This document shows positions 22,501 through 49,281 of a stretch of DNA of 64,000 nucleotides, piece by piece (positions within the stretch are counted from its first letter, which is position 1; each line of letters opens with the position of its first letter). The position numbers were made by a program, and so were the translations under genes. This DNA is from Amphiscolops sp. MND2022. Its lineage: Eukaryota. Below the pieces are notes generated by a model. The model made no database searches and was not told where the DNA came from. It worked only from the letters and a program-made list of their open reading frames with translations. The stretch spans positions 76,386,001-76,450,000 of the forward strand of contig OZ076409.1 of NCBI GenBank assembly GCA_964187785.1, read 5' to 3'.

Positions 22501-22617
22501 TATGTAATGAAACCAATAACACCTACAACTATCAACGCCCACCGTCCGTAGGCATGCCGAGGCATGCCTTTCGACGACGCGCGCCGGAAACAATCTAACG
22601 GCGCCACCCGCTTCTGG
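19547..22617 (+). mobile_element. Long divergent unit (3071 bp) with unique internal sequence
   Basis: Starts GTG, has the GAGGG-loop hairpin, an A-family-like patch near 20015-20070 and the variant palindrome at 22550-22569, and ends CTGG. Confidence 0.75.
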
Positions 22618-30000: not shown

Positions 30001-32972
30001 GTGTCTTTGGACTCTGTTAAAAAATTTTTTCCGACTAAAATCAAAAATTATTTATAATTATTCACATTTTTTTCTGATCTCATGACTCGAAACAGTTGAG
30101 TACATTCCATCTCCCTTCCCGGGGGAGATGAGAATGTACTCTCTAAAGACCAGGTACTACAGTACTTACCTTCCCCGAGCAACGCCCCATAAAAATTGCG
30201 TTTTGATCATTCTATTTTGACATAATTCTATCTTTGTAATTTAACTGGAAATGAAGAAAATCCGCACGTGCTCTTTTATATCAAGTATCTTAACAACGCC
30301 ATCTCTTTAACGTCAACGCCCCATAGTTCACATCAACGCCCACCGTCCGTGGGCATGCCGAGGCATGCCCTTCGACGACGTATGCCAAAGATATTCCCGA
30401 GCGCGTTAGCCTAGGTGCCGGGATTACTATTCGATAAGGAATTTTGCGCGGTTGGGTAGGGCCCCGTGAGCGCGCCAGGGGATAGTGTTAGAACAACAAG
30501 GATTTGGGCATCAGTTGGGAGCGATTTTCTAAACTATCCGTACGATTTTGCTGAAATTTGGCACGAAGCTTCCTTGGAACATTCTAAGAACAAATCCCTA
30601 CTGGCGTTTTGCTGGGAAAAATCAAAAAGTTGGTCAAAAATGCGATTTTCCGACAAAATTTTGGGGTAAAATTTTTTTGAAACGTTATATCTCGCCACAG
30701 GGTCACGCTAGCGCCTCGCAACCTATGATCGTGTTTTGTTGGGCGTTGTCTGTAGAACACGTATGCCAAATTTGGTGGCGATCGGACTTAAACTCAGGGA
30801 GATATAGCGATTTTTTAGGTGCATTTTTTGACATTTTTTGCATTTGCCGATTTATCTCTGCCGTTTTTGCCCAAATTTTTTTTGAGACACTCTCCTAAAG
30901 ACCTCCCCTGGCCGGTTTACCTCCCAAAAAAACCATTTGGCCCTAAATACGAAGTTTCAGCGTTCTAGCATTCCCGGGCAAAAAGTTGTGGGACTTAGAA
31001 TAGTTTTTATGGTAACGCAAAATGTGTAAAGTCAACTTCAGGCCTCCCAAAGTCAAAGAACTTCCACACAACTAGGATTGCAAGTGGGTGCATGTGGAAA
31101 GTACTCGGATAGACGAGAAAAATGAGCTATAGAACGACTCTGTAGCTTAACTTGACGTTGACTTATGACAATTTTAGTGTGAGCTTGCTATTTGGTGTAA
31201 AAATTCAAATGATGAAAATCGAAGCTAAGTCTCATCCAAAACTCATCGGAATACGTTCAATGCATCCCAAAGCGGATTAATTCGAGATGTTTAGTGCAGC
31301 AACACCATTCAAGACCATTTGACCCATTTTTATAAGTTTTGACAACGTATTATTCATACGAGAGCACGAAACAGTTGAGTACATTCCATCTCCCTTTCGG
31401 GGGAGATGAGAATGTACTCGCTAAAGTCCAGGTACTACAGCCCATATTTGCTTTTATGCGACGCTCTTATGCTAGTGCGCATACTTTTTAATCGTTTAAC
31501 TGAATTTTCTTCTGTCTGCACTTTGACTTTGACTTGACATATAGTGAACGTTTTGTCTTACAACTTACAAATGAGTAACGTCAACGCCCCATCCTTGCAT
31601 CAACGCCCACCGTCCGTGGGCATGCCGAGGCATGCCCTTCGACGACGTATGCCAAGATATATCCCAAGCGCGGTAGCAGCTAGGTGCCGGGATTTCTATT
31701 CGATAAAGTATGTGGCGCGCCTTGGGTAGGGTCCCTTGCGCGCTCTTGGGTATGGTGTTCACCAGCTAGGAAATAGGGGTCGATTTTTCGGGATCTCCTA
31801 AACTAGCCACACGATTTGGCTGAAATTTGGCACACGTACTCCCCTCGGCACGGTGAAGATGATTTCCTACTGACGTTTTTCCCGCAAAATTTTTTTTGTT
31901 GTCCAAAATAACGGTTTTTGGGGTAAAATTTTGAATTTTTTTTAAATTTTATCTTATATCTCGCCACGGGTTTACGCTAGCGCTTCAAAACCCTGCTAAA
32001 GAAAGCTTGCAAACTGTCTCAGGAATGCGGTGTGAAATTTTCAGCTCAATCGGACTCAAACTCGGGGAGATATAGCGTTTTTCCGGAGCGGGGGGGTTTC
32101 ATTTTTCTAACGGTCCAGCTTATCTTAGCCATTTTTTCGAAAATGTACTCGCCTAAAGACCTCCCCTGGCCGGTTTTATTCCCAGCAAAACCATTTGGCC
32201 CTAAATACGGAGTTTCAGCGTTCCAGCATTCCCGGGCGAAAAGTTGTGGGACTTAGAAAAATTCAAAAACTTTCAAAAAATTTTTTTTCGGTTTTCCGCC
32301 CTCCCCCCCGAGGGGAAAAGACCCCCCAACCAGTAATTTGAGTGAATTCATGTGGAAAGGCCATGTTTAGAGGAGAAAAATCCCGTTTAGATCGTCTTTT
32401 TATCTTTATTCAACGTTGACTTATGACGTTTTGAAGGTGATGTTTGGAGGTGTGAAGCACGTGAAAAGTAAACGTTATGAGTATTTATCTGATCTGAAAG
32501 CCATTGAGATGCAATCTGTTTTGCTCAAAATGTAATTCATTTCTGTTTGGTAGTCAATCAACACCCTTTGTTGTCATTTGACATCTTTTTTTGTTGATAT
32601 AAGAAAAAATTTTGTGTATTTATTCATTTTTTTCTCATCAAATAACTTGAAACAGTTGAGTACATTCCATCCCCCCTTCACGGGGGAGATGAGAATGTAC
32701 TCGCAAAAAGCCCCAAACTACGGCCCTTACCTTCCTGAGCTACGCAGTATAAAGATTGCATATTGGTTCCGACATTTTCATAGAGTTAAATCTTGGTAAT
32801 CTGTCTGGATATGCAGAAAAACCAGCACGTGCTTTTTTATACCAAGTTGCTCACAACGACAATTATTTTATATCAACGCCCCCATATTTATCAACGCCCC
32901 CCGTCCGTGGGCATGCCGAGGCATGCCCTTCGACGACGTATACCAAGATATACATCGAGCGCGTTAGCCTAG
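24007..32972 (+). mobile_element. Seven family-B non-autonomous units (1265-1310 bp)
   Basis: Units 24007-25292, 25293-26570, 26571-27839, 27840-29104, 29105-30414, 30415-31683 and 31684-32972. All start GTGCCGGGATT. 26571 and 30415 are near-identical; 24007 and 31684 match 13707 and 49282. Confidence 0.85.
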
Positions 32973-35506
32973 GTGGTCGGTATTCTTTACTACCTCATGC
33001 TCTGAGGGCGGGGTAGGGCCCCTCGCCCGATCCTAATCCTTAGGATTTTAAACATAAGGCCAATAATCCAGATATTGGCGATCTCGAAAACTAACCTTAC
33101 GATTTGGCTGAAATTTTGCATGCGGCTCCCTATGACAGATATAAGAACAAATCCCTTCTGGCATTTTGCTGGGAAAATTCAGTTTTTGGGTCAAAATCAC
33201 TATTTTAGGTCCAAAAAATGGCGTTTTTTCGGAAAATTTTTTTTCAAGAGCCAATATCTCGCTCCCAGGTGCTCGGAGCGGGTCGCATGTGGACGTCGAT
33301 ATTGCTAGGCACTTCGTAAGGAGTCCGTAGACAAATTTTCGTACAGATCGGATGAAAATTGACTTAGTAATAAAAAACTTTGATTTGCATTTTTTCGAAA
33401 ATTTATGAAATCCTAGTGTATCTCTGCCGTTTTTTGCCCAGATTTTTTTCCAGGACCTCTCCTAAAGGCCTCCCCTGGCCGGTTTACCTCCCAGAAAAAC
33501 CATTTGGCCCTTTTGCCGCAGTTTCAGCAATCCAGGATTCCCCGGGTAAAAGTAAAATGACTTAGAATTTTTTCGAAAAATTTTCAAATTTTTTTTTTCA
33601 ACTTTAGGCCTCCCAAAGTCAAGAAACGTCCACACAACTAGTATTGCAAGTGATTGCATGTGGAAAGTGCTCGAATAGACGAGAAAAATGAGCTATTATA
33701 AACCTCTGTAGGTCAACCTGACGTTGACTTATGACAATTTTAGTGTGAGCTTGCTAAGTGACAAAAAATTTCAAAAATTGAAAATCGAAGCATAGTCTCA
33801 TCCAAACTCCTCGGAATACGTTCAATCCAAGCCAGAGCGGATTAAATCCAGCTATATAGTGCAGCAACACCATTCAAGTTGTTTTTGACTCCTTTTAATA
33901 AGTTTTGACACTGTCTTATTCATCCGAATGTTCGAAACAGTCAAGTACATTCCATCTCCCTTTAGGGAGATGGTAATGTACTCACCAAAAACCAAGTAAT
34001 ATTGCCCTTTTTATACCTGGAAAGGCCCTAGAAATGCAGTAGCGTGAGCTCCAGGTCGTTTGCAGTAGCCTTCACGTGTGTTGTGACTTTGCTATAAAAC
34101 TAACTATGTTACTAAAAGTGAAAAAAATTTCTCTTCAAAAAACTATTATATTTACACGTTTTGTTGTCAAATACAACTACTAAACAAATAGCGCCCCCTT
34201 GTCTACTGTTCAACCGTGCACGTCTAGGTGGTCCGGTACACTACCAACAAAACATTGTCGCGAGCAACGGGGAGGGTCCTGTAGCGAGCTTTATAGGAAA
34301 AAAACGGCGGAGCATATATACTAGGCAACATCGGCACTTTTACCCACGATCTCTGAAATGAACCATACGATCCGGCTCAAAATTTGCATACGGCTTCCTC
34401 TAGCGATTCTAAGAACTTTTCCCTACTGGCATTTTGCCCGGAAAATTCAAAAAGTGGGTCAAAATCTTAGTTTTTTGGTCGAAAAATGGCGTTTTTTTGG
34501 AAAAAATTTTTTTAAGAGCCCATATCTCGCTCCCAGGTGCTCGGAGCGGGTCGCATGTGGACGTTGATATTGCTGGGCACTTCTTAAGGAGTCCGTAGAC
34601 AAATTTTCGTACAGATCGGATGAAAATTGACTGAGTAATAGCCGCAAATCCGACGAATTTTTCAGAAAATTTTGGTACACCTAGTCTATCTCTGCCGTTT
34701 TTTGCCCAGATTTTTTTCCAGGACCTCTCCTAAAGGCCTCCCCTGGCCGGTTTACCTCCCAGAAAAACCATTTGGCCCTTTTGCCGCAGTTTCAGCGTTC
34801 CAGGATTCCCCGGGTAAAAGATAAATGACTTAGAATTTTTTCGAAAATTTTTCAAAATTTTTTTTTCAACTTCAGGCCCCCCAAAGTCAAGAAACTTCCA
34901 CACAACTAGTATTGCAAGTGAATGCATGTGGAAAGTGCTCGAATAGACGAGAAAAATGAGCTATTATAAAGTTCTGTAGCTTAACCTGACGTTGACTTAT
35001 GACAATTTTAGTGTGAGCTTGCTATGTGAGAAAAAATTTCATAAATTGAAAATCGAAGCTAAGTCTCATCGGAATACGTTCAGTGGACCCCAGCGCTGTT
35101 TAAATGCCGCTGTTTAGTGCAGCAACGCCCTTTAAGGTCATTTGATCCATTTTTTACAGGTTTTGACACCGTCTTATCCATTCGAAAGTTCGAAAGAGTT
35201 GTGTACATTCCATCTCCCCCCTTCTATGGGGGAGATGGTAATGTACACGCAAAAAGCCAAGTACTACTGTTCTTTTTATACTTGGAGTGGCCTCGGCAAT
35301 GCAGTAGCGGGAGCTCCAGGTCGTTTGCCGTAGCCTTATTGTCTGTTTAGACTTTGCTACAACAGAAACTATGTTACTGATCATGAAAAAGATTGTTTCA
35401 ATCCAAATGTTTTTTCAAATAATAATACCAAATAACACATGTCCATATATCCACTATTGCCACTAAATACTGGCGCATCGTCGCACAACGAAGCCTGCAG
35501 CGCTAG
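32973..35506 (+). mobile_element. Two family-C non-autonomous units (1255 and 1279 bp)
   Basis: 32973-34227 ends GTTCAACCGTGCACGTCTAG, like the autonomous element. 34228-35506 is a C1 copy. Confidence 0.85.
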
Positions 35507-36321
35507 GTGCCAATCCCCCCCGGGATGCCACAACTTCGAGGGCGGGGTAGGGCCCCCTGCCCGAGTCCAAATCCAACGGCGCTAAACTTCGCGCCTATAA
35601 CGTAAGGCGTTTTCCATTTCTAGAGGCGATCTCGAAAACGGCCCCATAGAATTGGCTCAATAGAATTTGCATACGGCTTCCTCTAGCGATTCTAAGAACT
35701 TTTCCCTACTACCGTTTTGCCCAAAAAAATTTTTTTGTTGACTTATAGACAATTTTAGGTGCCGAAAATGGCGTTTTTTCGAAAAATTTTTTTTCAAGAG
35801 CCCATATCTCGCTCCCAGGTGCTCGGAGCGGGTCGCATGTGGACGTCGATATTGCTAGGCACTTCGTAAGGAGTCCGTAGACAAATTTTCGTACAGATCG
35901 GATGAAAATTGACTTAGTAATAAAAAACTTTGATTTGCATTTTTTCGAAAATTTATGAAATCCCAGTGTATCTCTGCCGTTTTTTGCCCAGATTTTTTCC
36001 AGGACCTCTCCTAAAGACCTCCCCTGGCCGGTTTACCTCCCAGAAAAACCATTTGGCCCTTTTGCCGCAGTTTCAGCGTTCCAGAATTCCCCGGGTAAAA
36101 GTAAAATGACTTAGAATTTTTTCGAAAAATTTTCAAAAAATTTTTTTTCAACTTCAAGCCTCCCAAAGTCAAGAAACTTCCACACAACTAATATTGCAAG
36201 TGGATGCATGTGGAAAGTGCTCGAATAGACGAGAAAAATGAGCTATTATAAAAGTCTGTAGCTTAACCTGACGTTGACTTATGACAATTTTGAGTATAAG
36301 TGAATTTTAAATTCATGGTAT

Positions 36322-36457
36322 TTCTAACTAATTTTTTTTCTTTTTCCAGGTGTCGGAGTTAACTTTTCTGCGTACAGGTAATGTTTAGTTACAGGTTACG
36401 TCTGGTAAGTTTGCGGTAGGGTTGTGAGCAGCGAATTATGTTTGAATGAATTTCCAG
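36322..36457 (+). other. Candidate 5'-UTR splice signals upstream of RepHel
   Basis: TTCTAAC branch-like site plus polypyrimidine tract and CAG ending at 36349. Donors GTAATG at 36378 and GTAAGT at 36405. Acceptor TTTCCAG ending at 36457. Confidence 0.5.
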
Positions 36458-36544
36458 TTATCCTTAATCTTTGTCATGAAGCGATGCCTTTCTCTGGTGA
36501 TGTCTAACACAACAGCGTTTTTTAAGATTTGATTTGCATTGATT

Positions 36545-39500
36545 ATGTCGCGTGGTCGACCAACTGGAAGCAGAGGTAGAGGCAGGCGTGCCACCAATCG
36601 GAATCGATGCCCAATTCACAATATCTTTCTCTCTGGCGAAGTATGCAGAAGATGCGAGGAGATACAGCAGTTTGAGGAACAGCAAGAGATGCGCGTAGAA
36701 GCAGCTACAGATGAAATTGAAGACAGTGTCCCCTTTCCCCCAGATGTCCCCAACGGTGCTGAGACGAGACAGGAGATGTGCGCAAAGTGTTGCAGGACGA
36801 CAACGGACAATTACAGACTTGACTTTCAAACTTTACACCGTGACTCACTTCATACAACTATGTTTGGTAAAACAGTGGCAGAGATGACTGGTGAAACAGC
36901 TACTCTCTGTCAAGAATGTGTTACTTACAACAACAATGCGACTCGTCATACTGATTGGCCTAATGCCTGGCCAAGCGTTATGTATACTTTACTTTTCGAA
37001 ACTCATAGGTTTAGTTCTGACGCCGAAAAACTGTTTTACTTACTACCACATGAAATTAGACAATCTTATAAAAATCACTTCAATGTAATTCATCCAACGG
37101 TGTCTACTGATACGACTGTTTCTACTTTCAGGGATATAACAAAAGAAAAAGAACATTTTTGGCAACTTATTAACAACCGAAAAGCTAAGACTTTAGTACA
37201 AGCTCTCACTAATTTCTGTTTCCCGAATGTTAGGTGTCCCGCGGGTTGCTTTGAATTCGTCGAGAAAGCTAATGGAATTTGCTTTGCTCATTTTCTAAAC
37301 TACCTGTACCCTACTTTTACCAGTTTTAATGCCAACAGTAGGAAATTTTTGAATGGAACACGTGATGACTTTTTGGAACCAGTTACACTTTTGCAAAAAT
37401 TTAAAATTTCTCCATGTATTATCAAAAACGAAAAAGGGTTGCAGCTTGTTACGTGTTCTGACCATAGTAAAGGCGTTCCTTTGAAATACGTACATGTACC
37501 AACTAACCCAGTTTCAGCTAATATAAGTCCGAAATTCGCAGACAGGTTAGCTCCAATGGTGTCCAGTGTTAGGACTTTTCGACCACTGAAGATCGGGTCA
37601 AAAAGTTGCACTTTCACAATGTGCCGCGTTGACAGTGGAAGGGTCAGCGGCGTAAGTTCAACTGTTCTGCACAAGTACAGGTACTTCGAGGCTCCTTATA
37701 ATAAGCTTTTGATAAAACTAGAGAAACTTTTGATAAACTTTCGCGGTGACATCAAAGACGTGATTAGAACATGTTGTAAAAATGAGGAGCTTAGTGAGAG
37801 TGCGGCTGAGCATTATTTGAATTCTTTACCACCGGTTACTTCTGCTCTTGTTGAAAAACATTGTTCAAACGCTGTTGTGTTCGACATGAACACTCTGATG
37901 AGAATGAAAGACTTTGTAGAAAGCTGTCCTGATGACATAGTAAGACAAGAAGACTTAAAAATACCTTTAGTTTTGGGACACAAGTTTGATGACTACGGGC
38001 AAGAACCCCCTTGTTTTCCTAAAGCTTTCATCGATGATACCAACATTTTTCCATTCGTTGCGGCTTTCTCCACAAACAGTTCACTCTTTCATAAACTTGT
38101 TAGCTCAGCAACAGATGATGAACATTCACAGGTTGTTTTGAGAATGTTACAAAAACTTAGACAAAACACTCGTTTACCTAAAACTAGAACCATTGAAGCA
38201 AACCTAAATCAATTTAAAAATGCTATCGTTCATCTTGTTGAAACGGAAAATGATCTATTTCTAGCCTTTTGTGAAAAATTAGAGGGTTGTTTGGTTGTAA
38301 AATGTCGACAAGCTGAAGTATCCAATTTCCTAATAGACTGCTCGAGGTATGATGTAATTTTGTTCGCTTCCTCTGCTTCCCACGGAAGAGAACATCAGAT
38401 ACCTTTCCAGTTGACTTCGATTAATGGTAAAACTTTTGATCTTACTTTAGTATCTGCTGAAGGCAAAGCTAGTGTCAGATATGGGGAGCCTTTTTACGGA
38501 TTTTGGACTTTAAAAGAAAATGGTAACAAGTTTGTAAAAGATCCAATGCTCGAATATCAATATAACCGAAACTGGAAGTTCCTAGTTTACACCTGTAGAA
38601 CCGACTTGGAAGAAAAAACAAAACTGCGTTACTTGAAATACATGGGTGGTCAAGGTATTTTCTTTTGCCGGGAACATAATTTGCCTTTAACAACTGATTA
38701 CCTTAGGAGCAATAGGAAATGTAGTGTTCCGAGAAACACCATTGGTATTTGTACTCGTAAGTCTGCGTGGCGCTGTCCTGAAAAAGAGTGCTGTGCCTCT
38801 GTTTGCAAAACTCACTTTGCCGAGTTCTGCGATAGCACCGATCGTGTTCTCGTCGATAACACACCGTCTGTTGAACCGATCAATGACAGCAGTGACGAAG
38901 AACATGATGTGCCAGCAGCTGAGGTTGACGAGCCGGTCGTGGGACACGACAACTTGTTTAATTTGGACTCTGTTCAAAGACCAGAAGAAGACCCAGAAGC
39001 AAATATGAACGAGTTCGACTGCCCTGAGTTAATTGTCGATGCGGGAGTACAGGAATCCGGCAATTTTGCTACAGACTCCGGCTGCGAACCTGTTTACTTA
39101 TGTAATGACTCCAAATTTGTGCCAATGCACGTTTTATTAAATGGTGAATGTCAGCTAATGAAACGGTTGAAGTATCCTAAGCACGTAGGCAAAAAATTTC
39201 AACGATTTTTTCAAAATTTTGTATCAACACTACCAGGTAGGTCAATTCCTTTACTTCAACCTGAGGCTTGTTTGTTCCCTAGCATTTTTTATAAACAATT
39301 AGAAGATGGGTCTTTTCCCGGCGCTTTGCCGTTTTTCCTTTACGACGACAAAAAGGCGAATTCCAAATTTGATTATGATGGCTTGCACGAACACTTAAGG
39401 TTAAGACTTAAAGACGGAACACTTCTAACATCATCAAACTTGTCATACATCATGCACGCATTCGATGCCGTTTTAAATTTATCCTTAACAAAATGCCACA

Positions 39501-42500
39501 CAAACCAGTTTTTCAAAAGAGGTTTGCAGACAATTTCTATTGGTAAGTATAGACCACACCAGCTAACGTCAACAGAAAGTGTTTTAAAAATGGACAGTGT
39601 CGATAGCGATGTACATGTTAACCGGTTGGGAACAGCTTGCGCATCTGAAACACCTGATTTGTTTGTAACATTCACTTGTAATCAAAAAGAACATCCGGGA
39701 GTAGCAGAAGTAGTACAGGCTATTTACGAACTTTTTGGGTCAGCAACAACAGAAGAGCTAAAAGAAATACTCCAAGCGTACATGGTAATTATTGTGCGAT
39801 GTTGGACCAGAACCATCGAATTTTTACTAGACTACCTCAGGTTCTCTGACGAACACATTTTAGGCGAAATTTTGAAAGTGTGGGGTAGGGCTGAATTCCA
39901 GAGTGCTGCCGGAAATTTACAGCATTACCACATTCTTTTTTGGTTGAAACCTTCAGACGAAGACGTTTTGGAAAAAATTCAATGTGCTCAGAAACATGTT
40001 CTGCACCATTTTAAAAAACTGTTTGAAATCAATTTTGGGACTGTCAATAGTGAAGAACACGCAGGTAGATTGTACGATGACTGTGTTCGTATTCAAACAC
40101 ATGACTGTGAAAAAGGCCACTGTTTGAAAAAAGTTAGGTTAAACGGAGAACGTAAATGTCGCTTTCCTGCTTACCCGCAAAGTCACGTCCCGTGGTACAA
40201 AGAGTTCCACCAGCCCCATTCCAGAGAAGCATTGGAAGCCTTGCAGGAACTTGGCTTGGCTGAGGCAAGGCCGGGTTACAGTAATGAACTGCAGGTTACG
40301 TCGACTTTGATGGCAGGTAAGTATATGTACGCTGCCCAAAAAGGAGAGCACATGTCACCTCTTAATGTAGCTTTGTGGAGCATTACGAAGTCCAGTTTAA
40401 ATGTTCTTAAAGTTTGCAAATCAGTTGCTTCAAGGTATTTAACATCTTACGCAGCTGGTAAAGAGGAACATGCTGATGTCTCCATAAATCCCGCGAACGC
40501 CCAAAATGTTTTAAATGTGCAGGTTCAAAAAATTGAAAATAAAAAACTAGGAGGAGTTAGGAAAATTTTGGCTAGAGAAACTAAAGAACAAAAAACGCAA
40601 GGTTTAATTGATTCGACAACAATTGCGAGCACTGAATGTGTCTCGTGGATGTTACAACTGCCAACTGTAATAACCACGATGGACTTTGTGTCTGTTCCTT
40701 CCGTTCCCTTAGAAAATCGAGGGGGTGTCATACTGAAGAGGAAGAACAACACCCAATCAAGGGAAAACCGGCCAGGAATCGCAAATGAGGGTCCGGCGGA
40801 AGTGAGACAGCAAGTGCTTGGTCTCCCAAATCATCGTTGTTTCACAAATCCTCAAAAAACTGTTTTAGAAAGTGCTTGCAACACTCCTTTCAGCACTGAC
40901 AAAGTTACTGTGTTTTCATTGCGTGCACCAGAATTACTTTTTGTTGACAATTTAAAGTTTTACTTTAGGTGGTTTGTTAGGGAAAAAATTTCGAAAAAAA
41001 GGAGGGAAAATGTTTACACCAGGTTCATAAAAGTAGACATGATACAATCGCATTGGCTAGACGGCGAAGGTTACGCTACAAAATTGAGACCCTCGGCTAT
41101 TGAAGAATTCATAACTTTTGTACAGGAAAAGTTGCTTGAAAATCCTACGGATAATCGAATTTTAGATGCTCAATTGGTTGTTTCACAGGTAGTTCAAGAT
41201 CCTTCTCATGTAAACTATCACAATTTTGTTTCCGCAGATGTAAAATTGTCCAACACTCCTGCTGAAGTTGTTTTTTCAAAAGTGTATCCGCGAAATCCAT
41301 CTAACTTTTTGATTCATTTTTTACTCTCCACTGGTCGGTTTGAAACTGAGCTTGAACTTTTCGACGTACCTTCTTTGAGAGACGCGTACATTCGAGGAAA
41401 GGTTATTCCAGATAAACAGGTTTACGACAATGCTGATGTTAACCGATTACTTGAAAAGTACATTTTGGAACAACTGCGTTATTTACCAGGAGGTACACGA
41501 TCCTTTGACGCCCATTTGCTGGCTGCTAAATCTGTTTTTCACGGTCTTTTAATAAATAATGACATATACAGTGAAAGTATGCCAATAACGTTGATGAACA
41601 CGTTAACTGAAGCTCTGGAGGATAAGGCTAAAAAAATGTTGAGGCAGTCTCAAGTGAATATAGTCAAGTCTTTAGTTCAAAAACACCTGCCTTCATTTCC
41701 TTCATTGAGCACTTTTGAAACTGTAAGTAAGGAAACACCTTCAGATTGGCCCGCTGATCTTGTGCCTAATTCTTTTCAATCAGCAGAGTCGCTACAGGAA
41801 CAAAGTTTCATTTTAGAAGAACTAAAAAGTCTTATAGCTGAATGTATCTTTGTCGATCATAAGTTCAGACATCATCAATTGATTTTAGGTCCTCCAGGGA
41901 CAGGTAAAACTTATGTTTTGACTATGGCATTAGGCTACGCTCTTTCGAAAGGTTTGTTTTGTTTGGTGACCAGTTTAGCATCTAGAAGAGCGATGCAGTT
42001 TGGGGGTGAGCACATCCACAAATTGTTTTGTTTACCTCCCTCCTCGACAGGGTCACCCATTAAAATGGCTGAACAAGCGTTAGTAAAACTGGACCATAGG
42101 AATGACAAGAAAATGCTCCTTCTTGCTCTCGAAGTGCTGTTTGTTGAAGAAATCAGTCTGATCAGTGCTGAGCAATGGGCTGCAATGGACATCGTTTTGC
42201 AAGAGTTGAAAGAATCGAAATTGCCCTTTGGTGGTATACTCGTAATTGCAAGTGGTGACCAAATGCAGCTACCCGCAATAGACGGCAACGACATTTTCTT
42301 GAGTCCGGTTTTGCTCACGAATTTCGCTTTGTTTTTTTTACAGCATTTTGTTAGGATGACTGATGAAGAGGGTCAAAAGGTGCTGCGTCACATGTGGAAA
42401 CGTCCAATCGATCCCCAAGCCATTGAAGAGATTCTCGAGATTCTCAGTTCCAAGTGTATTTTTAAGGACAACTGGGACGATTTGGACGATCCTTGCGTGA

Positions 42501-43663
42501 TGCGTGTTTTTGGTAAACGGAAAGCTGAGCAGAAGGAATTTGAGAACCACATTCAGCGAGTACGTTCGTCGGGTACGTCGCACCGAATTTTTGAAGCCAC
42601 GGACGAAATCTGTCTTAGTAAGAGCTCGGTTTGGAGTCAGACGGACTCTCGTCAAGTCGGTAACTACCTGAGCGACAAGGTAAACGAACCGAAGCAGCTA
42701 GTTGTTTACCATAAGGCTTTGGTTAGGGTCACAGTCAATTTGGAATCTGAGCAGTTGTCTCAAGGACAGGTCGGAGTTGTTCATGACGTTCCTACAGGTG
42801 ACTCGGTCACAATTTACGTCCCAGACACTAGCGGTGGTGAGGTAAGCATTACCCCTGAGATGTTGCAACGCGAAGAATACTTGACCTGGAGGACTGTGAC
42901 TTTGACCAGGCAAACTGGGTTTGTTCAAGCTTTCAAGAAAAACTCCGTGAGACGAACCCAGATTCCGCTAATGAACTTTGTTGCTCTAACAACTCACAAA
43001 TTAATGGGTGATACGTTTGATAAGCTGGCAACGTCCATCTCGGCAACGGATAACAGCTATGCTTTGTGGATGACGTCGCAAATTTTCGTCATTGTTAGTC
43101 GTGTAAAACAATTGAAAAAACTAACTTTTGTCGGAGATAAAACAGCTACGTTGAGCGCCATTAAAACACTTTTGCAGGAGAGGGATCGAAAAGAAGAACA
43201 TATGTTTACTTTACTTGATAAAATAAGAAGAAATTCAAGGTCAGGATCTGTTGTGGAACCCATCAACGTTTCGAGAATGTCTTACGTTCCTTTTAATAAA
43301 ACAATCCCTGAAACACCTAATGGTTTTGTGTACTTGTTAATTAGTGTCAATCAGTGCTCCCCCCAAACATTTTACGTTGGCCAAACTAAACGCGCCCTTT
43401 TGGTACGTCTCTCGGAGCATAACAGCGGAAATGGATCAGACTTTACAAACGTATCGCATCGATTACCTTGGGCCATTGCCGCGTTTGTTTGTAACTTTGA
43501 TTCCGATAGTTCCCGTGTAGACTTAGAGCGAGACTTACATAATGCGATGTTCGAGCGACGAGCCAATCTTAAGACATTAAACGACATGACAGCTCTTTTC
43601 CAGGAAAAAATAAACGAGAAAAATTGTAACCTGTACTTTTGTGTTTGCGGTCGTACTAGTTAG
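36545..43663 (+). CDS. Helitron-like RepHel transposase: Cys/His-rich N-terminus, HUH Rep domain, PIF1-family SF1B helicase, C-terminal GIY-YIG (SLX1-like) endonuclease
   Basis: The track ORF opens at TTG 36539; the first ATG is at 36545 (2372 aa). Rep motif 1 PDLFVTFTCN (~39650), motif 2 AEFQSAAGNLQHYHILFW (~39890-39945) and motif 3 YLTSY (~40436). Walker A GPPGTGKT (~41888), Walker B region LFVEEISLI, then PFGGILVIASGDQMQLPAI, RTQIPL..ALTTHK and IVSRVK. GIY-YIG region GFVYLL...FYVGQT..L..RL.EHN.G.G..FT....PW (~43320-43600). Confidence 0.95.
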   Translation: MSRGRPTGSRGRGRRATNRNRCPIHNIFLSGEVCRRCEEIQQFEEQQEMRVEAATDEIEDSVPFPPDVPNGAETRQEMCAKCCRTTTDNYRLDFQTLHRDSLHTTMFGKTVAEMTGETATLCQECVTYNNNATRHTDWPNAWPSVMYTLLFETHRFSSDAEKLFYLLPHEIRQSYKNHFNVIHPTVSTDTTVSTFRDITKEKEHFWQLINNRKAKTLVQALTNFCFPNVRCPAGCFEFVEKANGICFAHFLNYLYPTFTSFNANSRKFLNGTRDDFLEPVTLLQKFKISPCIIKNEKGLQLVTCSDHSKGVPLKYVHVPTNPVSANISPKFADRLAPMVSSVRTFRPLKIGSKSCTFTMCRVDSGRVSGVSSTVLHKYRYFEAPYNKLLIKLEKLLINFRGDIKDVIRTCCKNEELSESAAEHYLNSLPPVTSALVEKHCSNAVVFDMNTLMRMKDFVESCPDDIVRQEDLKIPLVLGHKFDDYGQEPPCFPKAFIDDTNIFPFVAAFSTNSSLFHKLVSSATDDEHSQVVLRMLQKLRQNTRLPKTRTIEANLNQFKNAIVHLVETENDLFLAFCEKLEGCLVVKCRQAEVSNFLIDCSRYDVILFASSASHGREHQIPFQLTSINGKTFDLTLVSAEGKASVRYGEPFYGFWTLKENGNKFVKDPMLEYQYNRNWKFLVYTCRTDLEEKTKLRYLKYMGGQGIFFCREHNLPLTTDYLRSNRKCSVPRNTIGICTRKSAWRCPEKECCASVCKTHFAEFCDSTDRVLVDNTPSVEPINDSSDEEHDVPAAEVDEPVVGHDNLFNLDSVQRPEEDPEANMNEFDCPELIVDAGVQESGNFATDSGCEPVYLCNDSKFVPMHVLLNGECQLMKRLKYPKHVGKKFQRFFQNFVSTLPGRSIPLLQPEACLFPSIFYKQLEDGSFPGALPFFLYDDKKANSKFDYDGLHEHLRLRLKDGTLLTSSNLSYIMHAFDAVLNLSLTKCHTNQFFKRGLQTISIGKYRPHQLTSTESVLKMDSVDSDVHVNRLGTACASETPDLFVTFTCNQKEHPGVAEVVQAIYELFGSATTEELKEILQAYMVIIVRCWTRTIEFLLDYLRFSDEHILGEILKVWGRAEFQSAAGNLQHYHILFWLKPSDEDVLEKIQCAQKHVLHHFKKLFEINFGTVNSEEHAGRLYDDCVRIQTHDCEKGHCLKKVRLNGERKCRFPAYPQSHVPWYKEFHQPHSREALEALQELGLAEARPGYSNELQVTSTLMAGKYMYAAQKGEHMSPLNVALWSITKSSLNVLKVCKSVASRYLTSYAAGKEEHADVSINPANAQNVLNVQVQKIENKKLGGVRKILARETKEQKTQGLIDSTTIASTECVSWMLQLPTVITTMDFVSVPSVPLENRGGVILKRKNNTQSRENRPGIANEGPAEVRQQVLGLPNHRCFTNPQKTVLESACNTPFSTDKVTVFSLRAPELLFVDNLKFYFRWFVREKISKKRRENVYTRFIKVDMIQSHWLDGEGYATKLRPSAIEEFITFVQEKLLENPTDNRILDAQLVVSQVVQDPSHVNYHNFVSADVKLSNTPAEVVFSKVYPRNPSNFLIHFLLSTGRFETELELFDVPSLRDAYIRGKVIPDKQVYDNADVNRLLEKYILEQLRYLPGGTRSFDAHLLAAKSVFHGLLINNDIYSESMPITLMNTLTEALEDKAKKMLRQSQVNIVKSLVQKHLPSFPSLSTFETVSKETPSDWPADLVPNSFQSAESLQEQSFILEELKSLIAECIFVDHKFRHHQLILGPPGTGKTYVLTMALGYALSKGLFCLVTSLASRRAMQFGGEHIHKLFCLPPSSTGSPIKMAEQALVKLDHRNDKKMLLLALEVLFVEEISLISAEQWAAMDIVLQELKESKLPFGGILVIASGDQMQLPAIDGNDIFLSPVLLTNFALFFLQHFVRMTDEEGQKVLRHMWKRPIDPQAIEEILEILSSKCIFKDNWDDLDDPCVMRVFGKRKAEQKEFENHIQRVRSSGTSHRIFEATDEICLSKSSVWSQTDSRQVGNYLSDKVNEPKQLVVYHKALVRVTVNLESEQLSQGQVGVVHDVPTGDSVTIYVPDTSGGEVSITPEMLQREEYLTWRTVTLTRQTGFVQAFKKNSVRRTQIPLMNFVALTTHKLMGDTFDKLATSISATDNSYALWMTSQIFVIVSRVKQLKKLTFVGDKTATLSAIKTLLQERDRKEEHMFTLLDKIRRNSRSGSVVEPINVSRMSYVPFNKTIPETPNGFVYLLISVNQCSPQTFYVGQTKRALLVRLSEHNSGNGSDFTNVSHRLPWAIAAFVCNFDSDSSRVDLERDLHNAMFERRANLKTLNDMTALFQEKINEKNCNLYFCVCGRTS

Positions 43664-43825
43664 GGTAAAAAATCATGTAAACTTCGAGGTATGTTGCCCT
43701 TTTGAGCCATCTGCCTCTTTAAATTGGAATGTAAAATCTAGGAAGATAGGTTAACGTGTATTGCCGTGCAGTTACCATCAAATGAAGACCACCAGAAGTG
43801 ACAGTGGATGATGAAGAAGAATCCA

Positions 43826-44030
43826 TTGTGTATGATCTTGTGTGGACCTTGTGAGTCTTCGAAGTTCATACACAAACTAATAAATGATACAATACAACGG
43901 TGTCTGAGCTTGTGTGGACCTTTTGAGTCTTCGGAGTTCATACACCAACCCATAAACTAATAAATGAAAATTTAATAAAATGGTGTCTGAGCTTGTGTGG
44001 ACCTTTTGAGTCTTCGGAGTTCATACACCA
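43826..44030 (+). repeat. Three copies of a ~50-nt stem-loop motif in the RepHel 3' UTR, each followed by AATAAA
   Basis: Copies at 43826-43875, 43899-43946 and 43981-44030, with core TGTGTGGAC-CTTKTGA-GTCTTCG and paired flanks. A fourth related copy lies at 47510-47559. Confidence 0.75.
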
Positions 44031-44303
44031 ACCCATAAATAAAAAAATATATATCACTGGACGGACAATTGACTCCGATTTTGACTTTTTTGACATGACT
44101 TTTCGACTTTTTGACTGTTTTTGACAGAAAAGAACTAAAACTACCCCTAATGACTGACTGAATTCAACTCTTTTTCTACTCTTACATTTGGTTTTCCCTG
44201 AGATGAGCTAGAAGGTTGAGATGAAGAAAGATAAAATAGACTTCAGAGTAACAGCAACCGCAGTAGTTTTCTAATTACATTGTTTGCAGTAATAGAGACA
44301 GCC

Positions 44304-44590
44304 GACGACGAAGAAGAAAGAAGATGAGCATATGTACTATTTATATTCGTAATATTTATAATAAAAGAGACAACGGACGACGATGAAGAAAGAAGATGAG
44401 CATATGTACTATATATATTCGTAATATTTGTGATAAAAGGGACAACGGACGACGATGAAGAAAGAAGATGAGCATATGTACTATTTATATTCGTAATATT
44501 TATAATAAAAGAGATAACGGACGACGATGAAGAAAGAAATTGAGCATATGTACTATATATATTCGTAATATTTGTGATAAAAGGGACAAC
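44304..44590 (+). repeat. 72-bp minisatellite, 4 copies, two alternating variants
   Basis: GACGACGA(T/A)GAAGAAAGAAGATGAGCATATGTACTAT... recurs at ~44304, 44376, 44448 and 44520. Confidence 0.9.
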
Positions 44591-44774
44591 CTGATCTTAA
44601 TAAATGGAGTTGCCTGCTAGGGATACTTTGACTATTAGCCACATGTCGTTACCGTAGTTGTAGCATACTCTTTCAGAGCTTAATACTTGTACTGTTTTCA
44701 TTCATGTAACAGTTCATTCATGTTACCTCCACTTATGCGAAAAACATCAACCTTTGTATTTGTCTTCAGATCAA

Positions 44775-45437
44775 ATGGAAGCTCCAAAAATTGTCGTCGT
44801 CGGTGCCAGCAACCTCGTTTCTCTTCAGAAGCTGCCCCTGGTTGCCTGCAACTGCGACACTCCAACTTGTTGTCAACCTCAAAATCACATCAGTGGAATA
44901 CCTTCAAACATCAATTTTAAAGTTTTTGCAAAGCCGGGAGCTAAGTTTATCCACAACAATTGGGAAAAAGATGCGAATAATTTGTTCAAACAGGCTTTAA
45001 ATTGCAACCCTACTACAATCGTGTTCTATATGGATATTTTGATGAACTCCCTTACCGTTCCCCCGTGGCTAAATCCTGCTCTTCATAAACCTCTGTCCCC
45101 CGCTAGAGTTATTCATTGCCTGAAGTTAATAGAGAGAAAAGCCAACGCTAGAGACTGTCGTTTTGTTGTAGTACTTTGTAGGAGGAGAAAAAGCGATGAA
45201 AGAAAACTTGAGCCAGGAACGTCTTCGAATAACACGACATCCCCTGAAACGTCTTTAGATAATGAGTTTAACCGTTTATTAAAGGATAATTTCTTTGTTT
45301 ATTTCGATCTCAAACTTAGTAATTCCGCTTTTAAAGTAAATGATAGTGCCCATCAAACGCAATTGTCATTGAACTTGTCCCTCGGAAGAATTATTCGCTT
45401 CTTTTACAAGCAAGATCAACTTCTTCAAGATTCCTAA
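44775..45437 (+). CDS. SGNH/GDSL hydrolase-like protein (220 aa)
   Basis: Block I IVVVGASN (GDS-like), block II PGAK, block III-like DILMNSL and block V DSAH (DxxH), in the correct order and spacing. The ATG at 44775 follows a TCTTCAG acceptor-like site; the track ORF starts at TTG 44754. Confidence 0.75.
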   Translation: MEAPKIVVVGASNLVSLQKLPLVACNCDTPTCCQPQNHISGIPSNINFKVFAKPGAKFIHNNWEKDANNLFKQALNCNPTTIVFYMDILMNSLTVPPWLNPALHKPLSPARVIHCLKLIERKANARDCRFVVVLCRRRKSDERKLEPGTSSNNTTSPETSLDNEFNRLLKDNFFVYFDLKLSNSAFKVNDSAHQTQLSLNLSLGRIIRFFYKQDQLLQDS

Positions 45438-45779
45438 AACTTGCGCTTTGTCAGTTTAAGCCCTTTAGGTGCTTAAACTGACTTTTTTCCTCTCTTTTCT
45501 CTTCTTTTCCGCCTTTTTCTTTTTTAGGGTTCTGGCGACGTGGAAGAGTGGAGAGGAAACTTGGCCTGCTTGCAGGATTGCCAGCTGTCTTCGTGGAAAA
45601 AGTTGTGCTTGTCTACGTCCTTGCTTCAACTTGGACCCGAAGCAGCTGTCTCACAAATTGCGCCCAGTTTGCCAAGTTTTCTGGGTTGAAACAAAAAACC
45701 AGAAATTCCAAAAAAAAAACAAAAAAAGGCTGTTTACCAGCCTACAAAACATAAAAAAAATATGTATAACCCTGTAAAA

Positions 45780-45860
45780 CCCAAAAAAAAACAAAAAAAA
45801 ACAACAAAAAAACAAAAAAAACAAAAAAAAAAACAAAAATCCAAAAAAAAACAAAAACAC
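45780..45860 (+). repeat. A-rich low-complexity tract (CAAAAAAA-like repeats)
   Basis: Directly visible A/C tract between the two accessory ORFs. Confidence 0.85.
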
Positions 45861-46457
45861 TTTCAATAATGGAAAGTGTGGATTGTTTTTACTTTTTAAG
45901 CTTTTTCATCAACATTTTTAAAATTTTCATAGTTTTTTAATACGAAAATCTTTTTACTCAATTCTGAATATTTTTAAAATTTTCCATTTTTTCCAATCTA
46001 ATCCGAATTTTTCTAATTCATCCAACTTTTCTGCAACTCGAACGTAGTTAATTGGCTCGACTCCACTATCTTTACTAATGTAATTTACTACACTAACAAA
46101 GAGGAGTTAAGCTCCTAATTTTACATTATCTTAAGCTTTTAATTGTACATAAACCTGTATATATTGAACTTGTCGATAGTGTTTTATTTGTATTATAATC
46201 ATTAGCGTACAGTTCAGCAAGATTGGTGGTATGGACTTTTCAATGACTTCCCGGTTTCCATTAAAACAGGTGTCAATTTAATCCGTTCTAAACAATCGTA
46301 ACTTGTATATGGTGTAAAACTGTACATATACATTTCCTTTTCACTGGTTTACTGACTCGTTTCGGACAATTCAAGAGTATTTTGAGACCAAAACTAATTG
46401 TGACCCGGCTTAGACGAACGCTTCCATTTGCTTGGTGAAAAATAACATTTTGAAAAC

Positions 46458-47474
46458 ATGACTTATGTTTTCAGATTTCTTGTGAATATGCCGAGCTTCC
46501 TTGAAGCTAAATTGAATCTTGCCAGTGCGCAATTGAAAACCGCGAAGTTTACCACAATTGATCCATCAAAGTTTGAAGGTCAGGACAACCTTCCAAGGCT
46601 CTTCAAACTGTCAGTCACCTTCTTGTATGCATCTCAGCCCGCCAAAAAGATAGGTTACTCCAAAACGACAAAGAATTATGGACAGGCCTCGAGGAAGTTG
46701 GAAGTTGACAAGTATCATCGGTTCTTCCTCTTGAACGCAGCAGGTTCGTCATGCTGCTATGCCTTATTTTCCGAGAACTCAGAAGAATCACGAAAAATGT
46801 TAAGATATGCCGCGTACTTTGGTCCGGGCACACAGCTCAATTTGTTAAAGCCGGAGTTGATTGGGCATCTGTCACGTGGGCAAACGATGCTGCTCAAAAC
46901 AAATGAGCCCCTAGTACCGGTTGCCACGCCAACTCAAATTCCAGTTCCGCCGCCTTTCGACGTCGAGAGCAGTAATTACTGCGGTTTCCTGTTCACTACC
47001 AAAGCCCTGAAGTTAGACTCCGCTTTGGTGGCTGAGAATGTCTGTCCCTCCACGCTTTGTGACGGGCAGACATATCACGAAGCGTGCCCATGCCTAGAAA
47101 CAAGTCAGGACAAAACTTGGGTTATCTCCCTGGCGTTCACTTGTCCCGAATTAACAACCGAAATCAACAATACCGGGGATGTTTTCAGAGTGACGTCAAA
47201 CGCCCTAACCAATTTCTTTGTTACCCCAACTGCCCGTTGCTTAAAAGGTGACAATGAAAAGCTCGACAGGTTCGAGTTGGACGACGCTGTGGAAAAATTA
47301 ATTGAAAGCGTGAACGGATCACAAGGGTTCACAATCCAAGGGTGGTTTAAGCCAGCAATCGATGAGGAGGGGGTTGCTGTTGAGAATAAGAAATTCCATA
47401 TTTGCAACATCGCGCCAGCAACTGCCCTCTCCGACACGCAGCTAGCCCTACGCTACAACGGAAAATCAACTTGA
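46458..47474 (+). CDS. Hypothetical protein, possibly tandem OB-fold plus Zn-ribbon ssDNA-binding (RPA70-like architecture)
   Basis: Clean 338-aa ORF; the true start may be ATG 46488, after the TTTTCAG acceptor ending at 46474. Shows a beta-rich pattern with an OB-like FGPGTQLNLLKP segment, a Pro-rich linker and CPSTLC-x8-CPC. The fold assignment is inference. Confidence 0.7.
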   Translation: MTYVFRFLVNMPSFLEAKLNLASAQLKTAKFTTIDPSKFEGQDNLPRLFKLSVTFLYASQPAKKIGYSKTTKNYGQASRKLEVDKYHRFFLLNAAGSSCCYALFSENSEESRKMLRYAAYFGPGTQLNLLKPELIGHLSRGQTMLLKTNEPLVPVATPTQIPVPPPFDVESSNYCGFLFTTKALKLDSALVAENVCPSTLCDGQTYHEACPCLETSQDKTWVISLAFTCPELTTEINNTGDVFRVTSNALTNFFVTPTARCLKGDNEKLDRFELDDAVEKLIESVNGSQGFTIQGWFKPAIDEEGVAVENKKFHICNIAPATALSDTQLALRYNGKST

Positions 47475-47988
47475 TGTGATGCAGAAAATACTAGCTACAT
47501 TCAGCGCTGTTGTGGTGAATAGTGTGTGGTCCTTTTGAGACCTCGGCTATTCACCACAATTTAAACTCAAAATACTCTTGCTTGTTGTTGATAACATGTT
47601 ATCGGTTATTTCTGTTTTAATTGAAACGAAATCCACAGGTAATGGGAAAATTGGAAAGGTAGATAAGAACTAATAGCATTTTTTCTACCTGGTACTTTTT
47701 TTTCAAATAAGCCACTGAGTGAGCAGTTAGGAGGTTGACATGAAATCAAAGTAGGATTTTAAGAGAATTAAAAAAAACTCTAGTGTAAATTCTAAAACTC
47801 AATTGGAATATGTGCGAACATTTATGTAACGACAACACTACCGCATTCTTGAACATCATTAACCACTAATTAACCTATCAACCAACACCCGACTGAAGAC
47901 GACCCTTCTCCAATCACGTAAGTAACTTTTACCTTTTTAAACAGTTTCCTGCCTTCTTGACTCTCTCCGTTCAACCGTGCACGTCTAG

Positions 47989-49281
47989 GTGCCGATCCCC
48001 CCCGGGATGCCACAACTTCGAGGGCGGGGTAGGGCCGCCTGCCCGAGTCCAAAACCAACGGCGCTAAACTTCGCGCCAGAAACGTAAGGCGATTCGCATT
48101 TCCAGAGGCGATCTCGAAAACGGCCCATTCGATTTGGCTCAAATTTTGCATGCGGCTTCCTCTAGCGATTCTAAGAACTTTTCCCTACTACCGTTTTGCC
48201 CGGAAAATTTTTTTTGTTGACTTATACACAATTTTAGGTGCCGAAAATGGCGTTTTTTCAAAAAATTTTTTTTCAAGAGCCCATATCTCGCTCCCAGGTG
48301 CTCGGAGCGGTTCGCATGTGGACGTCGATATTGCTGGGCACTTCGTAAGGAGTCCGTAGACAAATTTTCGTTCAAATCGGATCAAAATTGACTGAGTAAT
48401 AGAAAACTTTGAAAGTGATTTTGACGACATTTTTCGAAAACCTAGTCTATCTCTGCCGTTTTTTGCCCAGATTTTTTTCCAGGACCTCTCCTAAAGGCCT
48501 CCCCTGGCCGGTTTACATCCCAGAAAAACCATTTGGCCCTTTTGCCGCAGTTTCAGCGTTCCAGGATTCCCCGGGTAAAAGTAAAATGACTTAGAATTTT
48601 TTCGAAAAATTTTCAAAAGTTTTTTTTTCAACTTCAAGCCCCCCAAAGTCAGGAAACGTCCACACAACTAGTATTGCAAGTGAATGCATGTGGAAAGTGC
48701 TCGAATAGACGAGAAAAATGAGCTATTATAAACCTCTGTAGCTCAACCTGACGTTGACTTATGACAATTTTAGTGTGAGCTTGCTATATGGTAAAAAATT
48801 TCAAAAATTGAAAATCGAAGCTAAGTCTCATCCAAAACTCATCGGAATACGTTCAATCCATCCCAAAGCGGTTCAATTCCAGTTGTATAGTGCAGCAACA
48901 CCATTCAAGGTCATTTGACCCATTTTAATAGGTTTTGATTATGTCTTATCCATCCGAAAATTCGAAACAGTTAAGTACATTCCATCTCCCCTCCGTGGGA
49001 GATGGTAATGTACTCGCAAAAAGCCACGTACTACCGCCCTATTCTACCCGTAGTGGTGCTAGAACTGCAGTAGCGGGAGCGCCAGGCTGTTTAAAGTAGC
49101 CTTTACGGGTGTTGTGACTATGCATTACAAGTCTAACTATGTTACTGAACGTGAAAAAAATGTTTCACTCCAAAATTTTTTTCAACTATTTTATGTCATC
49201 AATAAAGATATATCCATCCATTTACTATTACCTACCCCATCACCCGCCCCCTCCACTATCTGTTCAACCGTACACGTCTAG
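47989..49281 (+). mobile_element. Family-C2 non-autonomous unit (1293 bp), closest relative of the autonomous element
   Basis: Head GTGCCGATCCCCCCCGGGATGCCACAAC nearly matches 35507. Ends GTTCAACCGTACACGTCTAG. Confidence 0.88.

Follow-up and report, generated by a model that had tools for sequence, protein, structure and literature searches.

An SLX1-like GIY-YIG nuclease fused to the Rep-helicase of a divergent Helitron-like clade, in a mosaic array likely built by insertion at element junctions

How Helitrons choose and join their targets is an open question, and so is the purpose of the extra endonuclease of Helentrons. Both questions can be tested on a 64,000-nucleotide stretch of Amphiscolops sp. 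MND2022 (assembly GCA_964187785.1, contig OZ076409.1, positions 76,386,001 to 76,450,000 of the forward strand; hereafter the window). It holds an intact single-exon Rep-helicase (RepHel) enzyme, a 7-nt site with a hairpin, and a second, unrelated fused nuclease that exists naturally in intact and dead versions. We propose that this protein is the RepHel of a deeply divergent Helitron-like clade carrying a fused SLX1-type GIY-YIG nuclease, and that the element and its non-autonomous partners likely insert at CTAG|GTG between elements, building a one-directional mosaic array. We hold this proposal with moderate confidence. The domain anatomy, the clade-wide fusion, the conservation of junction and hairpin and the reshuffling of units as blocks are direct observations.

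The Rep-helicase, its clade and its nuclease

Only four stop-to-stop frames of at least 150 amino acids (aa) occur in the window. The longest is the RepHel-GIY-YIG frame (36545-43663, plus strand), a single uninterrupted open reading frame (ORF) of 2372 aa from the first ATG to its end with no internal stop, as the initial annotation stated. The motifs quoted there are all present in the translation: EFQSAAGNLQHYH (aa 1117-1129), YLTSYAAG (with Y1298 and Y1302), EEISL (1868), HKLMG (2151), FVIVSR (with R2186) and the GIY-YIG pattern (Y2263, Y2277, G2279, R2288, H2292 and E2328). Three Pfam matches exceed their gathering scores: Helitron_like_N (aa 1034-1131, E 2.2e-9, 38 bits), PIF1 (aa 1779-1912, E 2.2e-11, 44 bits) and GIY-YIG (aa 2260-2331, E 7.1e-6, 27 bits). 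The first 1000 residues have no Pfam match at E 0.1, and NCBIfam gave no useful match. As in the Helitron superfamily, an HUH Rep with two His and two Tyr lies upstream of a PIF1 helicase in one ORF.

Among sequence matches in the PDB, solved bacterial Pif1 helicases (E 8e-12) come ahead of Helraiser (1.5e-4, helicase only). The best Foldseek match of an AlphaFold model of aa 1000-2199 (pLDDT 77.9, pTM 0.57) is the Helraiser structure 7lcc (E 2e-24, 12% identity). VIA-align superposes 739 residues of Helraiser (Z 19.6, root mean square deviation 12.8, 17% identity) and ranks it 13th by Z, behind Pif1 helicases; it is the sole top match covering both Rep and helicase. These two matches to Helraiser therefore identify the ORF as a RepHel, very distant from canonical ones.

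Near homologues were collected by a word-indexed search (38 proteins, 33-100% identity). An exhaustive search with aa 1000-2199 returned 345 cluster representatives (50% identity) at E<=1e-30 and 1048 at 1e-10; the relatives counted below are the 144 that were new among the best 150 of these 1048, each residue being scored where it is covered. Helitrons and Helentrons are defined by a QxRGxxHxH motif, with ExQxRGLPHxH as motif 2 of the HLE1 Rep (PMC4067079; this and the other papers cited are represented here by partial text). The canonical motif occurs in none of the 144 relatives. At the two positions before xxHxH, G is found in 86 of 96 and N in 86 of 96. However unusual in sequence, the catalytic motifs, which the initial annotation called atypical, point to a usual chemistry. 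All catalytic Rep residues are retained (E1117 in 94/94, H1127 in 96/96, H1129 in 95/96, Y1298 in 107/108 and Y1302 in 108/110) and these five are invariant among 24 aligned members. The spacing of Y1298 and Y1302 equals that of Y727 and Y731 in Helraiser. In the helicase, the Walker A Lys (134/134) and the arginine finger (112/112) are kept. A dead enzyme is rejected on this invariance in the 24 members and near-invariance in the 144 relatives, and the odd motifs are best read as a marker of the clade, not as decay. The EEISL deviation of the helicase is present in the window copy and is not clade-wide. The first Walker B position, covered in 135 of the 144 relatives, is D in 87, E in 47 and Q in 1, which makes 'EE' a subclade trait.

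A canonical fungal RepHel, P0261, which a search with the helicase alone turned up and which carries the canonical Rep motif 2, scores 199 and 240 bits on Helitron_like_N and PIF1 against 38 and 44 for the window protein; the 345-cluster clade scores about one fifth of a canonical RepHel on the Pfam Helitron models. A FastTree phylogeny of helicases puts 3.5 substitutions per site between P0261 and the 39 clade helicases sampled (a long branch, with one canonical reference and neither HLE2 nor Paramecium sequences). This branch would set the clade apart from HLE1-type proteins; its separation from HLE2 and from the Paramecium clade is suggested by motifs and ends, not by the tree. The shared motifs, together with the nuclease fusion across relatives, support the distinct Helitron-like clade that had been suggested.

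No relatives were found in GTDB genomes or in viral contigs, and a prokaryotic or viral origin is rejected. Three plasmid records match the helicase part only (23-31% identity). Motif scans of viral contigs for reference Helitrons and a scan with P0261 both returned none, and five single matches to the junction pattern in viral sequences, with no DNA or protein similarity, were treated as chance. Eukaryotic hosts are indicated by the predicted GT-AG introns of related loci. RepHel families are often multi-copy, with clusters of up to 58 members. Members of the P0003, P0014 and P0037 clusters (about 31-48% identical to the query) lie on contigs of equal length, suggesting that several distant RepHel families may share one genome, even one contig. 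Neither a RepHel-SLX1 clade nor a mosaic array of this kind is described in the literature listed, a search outside which lay Repbase, Dfam and subscription journals, and the partial texts of PMC6431247, PMC8788227, PMC11662393 and bioRxiv 10.64898/2026.09.17.752431 contain nothing on such a clade. Single families of it may be catalogued in Repbase or Dfam.

The C-terminal domain was compared with solved structures through a profile of eight such domains, picked among those with an intact motif. SLX1 structures rank first (4xlg 9e-14, 7cq2 2e-13; SLX1 range 9e-14 to 2e-9), UPF0213 proteins fall among and after them (4e-10 and 1e-5), and UvrC (0.28) and T4 endonuclease II (0.45) are far behind. 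The SLX1/UPF0213-type C-terminus of the initial annotation is thus right at sequence level. The window copy has the two Tyr, Gly, Arg, His and metal-binding Glu of the GIY-YIG core, with SLX1 as its apparent closest kin. The domain follows the helicase in 103 of the 112 relatives that reach helicase motif VI, and the Y, Y, G, R, H core is fully kept in 77 of 102. Among the 38 near homologues it was found in 26, 20 of which keep all six catalytic positions; the other 12 are fragments or end at a likely intron. Of 15 related metagenome loci, four are intact, seven degenerate, one is cut short and three do not reach the domain.

A tree built from 39 Rep-helicase cores (eleven rows unlabelled) requires two changes to the degenerate state, and intact forms lie on both sides of the midpoint. 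The catalytic residues were lost at least twice in the near family. They are lost in P0014, whose cluster has 34 members, and the domain of locus L003, a relative 33% identical in protein, is without Arg and Glu. A 'sister lineage without GIY-YIG' was rejected: L003 has a predicted GT-AG intron (about 7892-7976), and its GIY-YIG lies on the next exon. Several relatives' proteins stop at the helicase end, where gene callers cut off intron-bearing RepHel proteins. Introns are predicted in the related genes L003:7892-7976 and L006:8473-8527; the window ORF is uninterrupted. OTU-like cysteine-protease coding sequence lies upstream of the RepHel match in L006 (1980-2345) and L005 (1700-2070). An OTU domain is listed in 5 of the 38 homologues and is absent from the window protein's N-terminal region.

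Junctions, hairpins and the reshuffling of units

The junction-conserved array to which the initial annotation alluded is real. CTAGGTG occurs 33 times on the plus strand and 4 times on the minus strand, against about 3 expected per strand, and a GGG[T/G]AGGG core comes after each of the 33 plus-strand copies. The joint junction and hairpin pattern gives 33 matches, all on the plus strand, and none in 100 shuffles. With one variant, CTGG|GTG, also followed by the hairpin and fitting a CTRG 3' end, there are 34 junctions delimiting 33 complete units, which fall into 18 families at 88% identity. All units are in one orientation and abut without spacer; self-comparison detects no non-array DNA in the 64 kb. 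The 7-nt core stands at both ends of every unit and can be read as a joint or as a duplicated target.

Every complete unit (33/33) has a 5' hairpin, whose core begins 39-42 nt into most of them. Over 18 distinct hairpins, 71.6% of stem cells are paired against 60.1% in shuffles (0/500), more than in any of six slid registers; the structure was derived from one of the tested sequences, and one of five covariation measures was not above shuffles. A 20-nt 3' hairpin block lies 43-57 nt before the end in 25 of 33 units and is absent from the autonomous unit, which has no stable hairpin near its 3' end, and from seven others. Terminal inverted repeats were found in none of the 33 units: the longest perfect inverted match is 4-6 nt (mean 5.0 against 5.1 between unrelated units). 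Twenty-four units measure 1.25-1.39 kb (1255-1389 bp) despite between-family identities down to about 65%. An array of RNA genes was rejected, since Rfam gave no match at gathering level and no tRNA was detected.

Some units stand apart. Those at 19547-22617 and 22618-24006, joined by the variant junction, have interiors that match no other unit of the window, yet share the usual junction, 5' hairpin and 3' hairpin block. The 2.8-kb unit 51844-54635 is kin to the 2-kb family and has an internal duplication (52212-52908 against 52715-53411, 83%). A minus-strand stop-to-stop frame of 172 aa (9781-10299) runs over a junction, has no Pfam match and is probably due to chance.

Which blocks move was examined by comparing 200 nt on each side of the junctions in all 561 junction pairs, at >=93% identity and with random re-pairing as the null. 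The left side matches in 22 pairs and the right side in 20, but both sides match in only one (permutation mean 0.79). In contrast, of 17 unit pairs with matching 5' ends, 15 agree at the 3' end too, over a distance of 1.3-2 kb. Identity stops 0-4 nt from the core in most cases, and three 99%-identical copies (14993, 34228 and 54636) have left and right neighbours that are all different. Since linkage is kept across units and is at chance across junctions, it is single junction-bounded units, not blocks of them, that are reshuffled.

One of these units is the 12,482-bp putative autonomous element that encodes the RepHel (Table 1). It shares its termini with non-autonomous partners: its first 790 nt or so are 92.5% identical to unit 47989-49281, and its last 19 nt recur in four 1.3-kb units with 0-1 mismatch. 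At 36292-36544, where it leaves the shared sequence, splice-acceptor-like and donor-like sites (about 36350 and 36370) suggest a spliced 5' leader starting in the shared region. Two further ORFs follow. For ORF2 the Atlas feature comparison, a lead only, groups it with clusters of which 21-30% are Lipase_GDSL_2; it has no Pfam match and no PDB sequence match and was not found in the 15 related loci (L001-L015). The predicted OB-fold of ORF3 (model pLDDT 68.5) is closest to MCM10 (Z 10.1) and RPA70 (Z 8.8), mainly the first 150 residues having been tested, and Foldseek returns CST/RPA proteins (E about 1e-4). It has 13 homologues, of which one lies downstream of the RepHel in L006 and several others, on contigs equal in length to those of RepHel homologues, appear to be co-located with these. 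Acceptor-like sites precede both ORF2 and ORF3, and an A-rich tract (45690-45860) lies between them.

Table 1. Features of the window (coordinates in the 64-kb stretch)
Feature	Position	Strand	Basis
Upstream mosaic array; non-coding units of 1.25-1.39 kb, 1.97 kb and one of 3.07 kb	1..35506	+	self-comparison, junctions
Variant junction CTGG|GTG	22614..22620	+	followed by the hairpin; fits a CTRG 3' end
Left junction core CTAG|GTG	35503..35509	+	pattern search
Putative autonomous element, 12,482 bp	35507..47988	+	bounded by two junctions; exact boundary within the 7-nt core inferred from the 3' CTRR rule
5' subterminal hairpin, G-rich loop GGG-[T/G]AGGGN-YCC	35540..35562	+	33/33 complete units; stem covariation
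RepHel-GIY-YIG ORF, 2372 aa	36545..43663	+	reading frame, Pfam
N-terminal region, aa 1-855	36545..39110	+	invariant Cys/His columns; no Pfam family at E 0.1
HUH Rep domain: motif 1 F1040-T1044, E1117, H1127/H1129, Y1298/Y1302	39605..40474	+	Pfam, invariance, model aligned to Helraiser 7lcc from aa 1021 on
PIF1-family SF1B helicase: K1788, E1868-E1869, Q1908, R1937, R2186	41867..43141	+	Pfam, alignments, structural model
SLX1-like GIY-YIG nuclease domain, catalytic set intact in the window copy	43322..43537	+	Pfam, profile, alignment
Internal 83-bp and 72-bp tandem repeats, 3' of the RepHel ORF	43828..44591		repeat analysis
ORF2, 220 aa, possible SGNH/GDSL-hydrolase-like (lead only)	44775..45437	+	Atlas feature score 0.94
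ORF3, 328 aa, predicted OB-fold single-stranded DNA-binding protein (RPA/CST-like)	46488..47474	+	model, fold matches, homologues
Right junction core CTAG|GTG	47985..47991	+	pattern search
Downstream mosaic array; units of 1.27-1.29 kb, 1.97-1.99 kb and one of 2.79 kb	47989..64000	+	self-comparison, junctions

Outside the window, the L003 contig begins 22 nt before the same loop. Its hairpin stem differs in sequence yet is fully paired and compensated, and the 130 nt that follow share 72% identity with the 5' regions of the units; the contig ends just short of the expected junction position. This hairpin, beside a degenerate GIY-YIG, therefore suggests that the end structure is old and does not need an active nuclease in the same element. 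The other 14 loci, which are short (1.4-12 kb), show neither junction nor hairpin.

How the array may have formed

In the mechanism that we favour, Rep would read the junction core and the G-loop hairpin downstream of it as one site and nick the plus strand at the core. The helicase would peel off one unit while the OB-fold protein coats the strand, and a second cut at the next CTAG would close a circle whose joint is again CTAG|GTG with the hairpin. Strand exchange by Rep between this joint and a chromosomal junction would turn one junction into two, leaving neither target duplication nor spacer. Replication would finish the branched product; flap or branch cutting by the GIY-YIG domain would help in most lineages and has decayed in some. 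The nick might fall anywhere in the 7-nt core; the CTRR rule and the CTGG variant are the grounds for placing it after CTAG. The circles that Helraiser forms have their two ends joined precisely, and this joint is cut on the plus strand (PMC4778049, PMC5876387). Because Helraiser cuts its own circle junction so precisely (PMC5876387), the chromosomal CTAG|GTG-hairpin, which would have the same sequence as the circle joint, may be a natural substrate of Rep.

Several points weigh against this mechanism. The array evidence comes from one 64-kb window, and dispersed insertions may exist elsewhere. None of the 15 related loci contains a complete junction, and no such hairpin occurs in the 2.8 kb (L006) and 2.6 kb (L005) upstream of the match, where the ends may lie further out. 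The autonomous unit is without the 3' hairpin block carried by most units; other partners must therefore exist. Catalytic residues of the nuclease are missing from 6 of 26 homologues and from 7 of 11 scorable loci. Within the array, neighbours of one family are commoner than expected (6 against 2.0, P=0.0075). At an 85% threshold both-sided junction matches are also slightly in excess (6 against 2.3, P=0.03), five of the six belonging to the 2-kb family. Recombination has also acted within the array, and some units are internal chimeras. Among 26 mixed neighbours, four have an upstream unit whose final 9-20 nt are those with which the downstream unit ends (permutation mean 1.75, P=0.08). These four ends (9846-9869, 12410-12422, 26554-26570 and 29086-29104) could reflect a crossover a little upstream of the junction; a pattern noticed post hoc only hints that an arriving unit deposits its 3' tip on the neighbour upstream of it. 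The neighbour excess, the both-sided excess, the chimeras and the shared tips therefore indicate some tandem copying or conversion as well.

Most of these array features, with the one 98% tandem pair, would also fit a RepHel from a new clade of rolling-circle transposons that are otherwise ordinary and dispersed. Rolling-circle concatemers would then have given rise to the array, which unequal crossover together with gene conversion would have scrambled in the manner of a satellite. Plants and bats are reported to have Helitrons in tandem arrays (PMC5876387, PMC5148889). We nevertheless consider this origin unlikely. Homologous recombination should favour the long conserved interiors of units, but linkage survives over 1.3-2 kb (15/17) and disappears over the 7-nt core (1 against 0.79), and 18 families, down to about 65% identity among 1.3-kb units, all abut without spacer. 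The strikingly even lengths of the 24 shorter units would fit instead a structure of the chromosome that the host maintains, be it centromeric, subtelomeric or an amplified locus, with a partly domesticated RepHel turning over its units. Helitrons are tied to centromeres in Meloidogyne (PMC13404089) and to chromosome ends in Paramecium (PMC13085455). Such a structure, which can coexist with junction insertion, seems improbable here: many RepHel families exist in multiple copies, which is what selfish elements should show.

The initial annotation also allowed that the nuclease opens the junction target. In that case the GIY-YIG domain would be a sequence-specific opener and Rep would only mobilise the donor strand. 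SLX1 nucleases, the closest solved relatives, cleave by DNA structure and not by sequence. The near-universal and mostly intact fusion is in keeping with an opener, as is its position, the same as that of the Helentron AP endonuclease (PMC4067079). However, catalytic loss on at least two occasions, one of them in L003, which still starts with the terminal hairpin, and another in the P0014 cluster, weakens the idea, although complementation in trans is possible. This repeated loss therefore suggests that the nuclease is probably not the target opener, a role to which we give very little credence. By analogy with SLX1, the domain would suit a branched product, and it probably trims branched intermediates.

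The proposal of junction insertion can be extended to a fourth major Helitron-like group, beside HLE1, HLE2 and the Paramecium clade. It would comprise hundreds of lineages barely seen by standard profiles, use its own end-to-end joint as the only target and so spare host genes, form self-growing, integron-like cassette arrays and resolve the strand-exchange intermediate with an SLX1-type nuclease. This wider scheme is tentative, with odds slightly below even.

Significance and comparison with known systems

The fusion alone is a moderate finding, and the array is the more surprising part. If junction targeting is true, the element makes its own safe harbour, offers a route from transposon to heterogeneous satellite and is a candidate site-specific single-strand integrase. 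Because the clade is large yet scores so low on the Pfam Helitron models, arrays of this kind have probably been annotated wrongly as satellite DNA. Helitrons are known to occur in tandem, to insert occasionally into themselves and to associate with centromeres (PMC5148889, PMC13404089, PMC5876387). HELIANO recognises HLE1, HLE2 and a few unclassified clusters, with DUF6570 as an HLE2 marker (PMC11417382).

Like HLE1 and Helraiser (7lcc), the window protein has the Rep-helicase architecture and fold, with an HUH domain and two Tyr four residues apart. The units share with HLE1 a CTRR 3' end (33 CTAG and one CTGG, provided that the boundary is set after the fourth base), and the autonomous element an RPA-like accessory ORF downstream of the RepHel (HELIANO, PMC11417382). 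However, GTG replaces TC at the 5' end: it follows in all 34 junctions, the invariant core contains no TC, and none of the junctions shows an A|T host target. Motif 2 is without RG(L)P in the window protein and in 144/144 relatives, in contrast to the canonical control P0261. The constant hairpin near the 5' end and the C-terminal GIY-YIG are further differences. HLE1 has a hairpin of 16-20 nt that lies some 11 nt from its 3' end; the 20-nt hairpin carried by 25 of the 33 units ends 43-57 nt from theirs.

The features of Helitron2 and Helentrons are described in PMC3627910 and PMC4067079. As in HLE2, an endonuclease is fused at the C-terminus, where Helentrons carry the AP endonuclease (PMC4067079), an OTU occurs in some clade members and many units have hairpins at both ends. 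Unlike in HLE2, Pfam detects neither AP endonuclease nor DUF6570 in the 22 clade proteins scanned, the RGSP motif is absent (0/144 relatives), there are no asymmetric terminal inverted repeats of 8-15 bp, and there is no T|T target and no T start. The caution that GIY-YIG fusions may already be catalogued was justified by one precedent: a single Sphagnum HLE2 family with TT ends, HelenSM92, has captured a GIY-YIG (PMC11417382; known here from its text description only).

A third Helitron clade, in Paramecium, has an orientation bias and a proposed targeting of telomeric repeats (PMC13085455). It resembles the present clade in being divergent and outside HLE1 and HLE2, in its absolute orientation bias and proposed target specificity, and in its internal satellites; its members have CCAA ends and telomeric repeats on their flanks, a distinction drawn from their description only (PMC13085455).

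The nuclease resembles SLX1 and UPF0213 proteins, its best solved matches, in the aligned Y..YxG..R..HN..PW..E pattern. It differs from SLX1 in being a nuclease domain of about 90 aa alone, fused to a transposase, with no RING or SLX4 partner identified, and in having decayed in several lineages. Integron cassette arrays and site-specific retroelement arrays likewise consist of heterogeneous units in one orientation with a regenerated site. Here, however, a eukaryotic HUH Rep-helicase takes the place of their enzymes, the units lack coding sequence, and the site is apparently the element's own end-to-end joint. Taken together, these comparisons point to a member of the Helitron superfamily whose ends and motifs agree with neither HLE1 nor HLE2, and which would represent a broad clade with its own motifs and an SLX1-type fusion.

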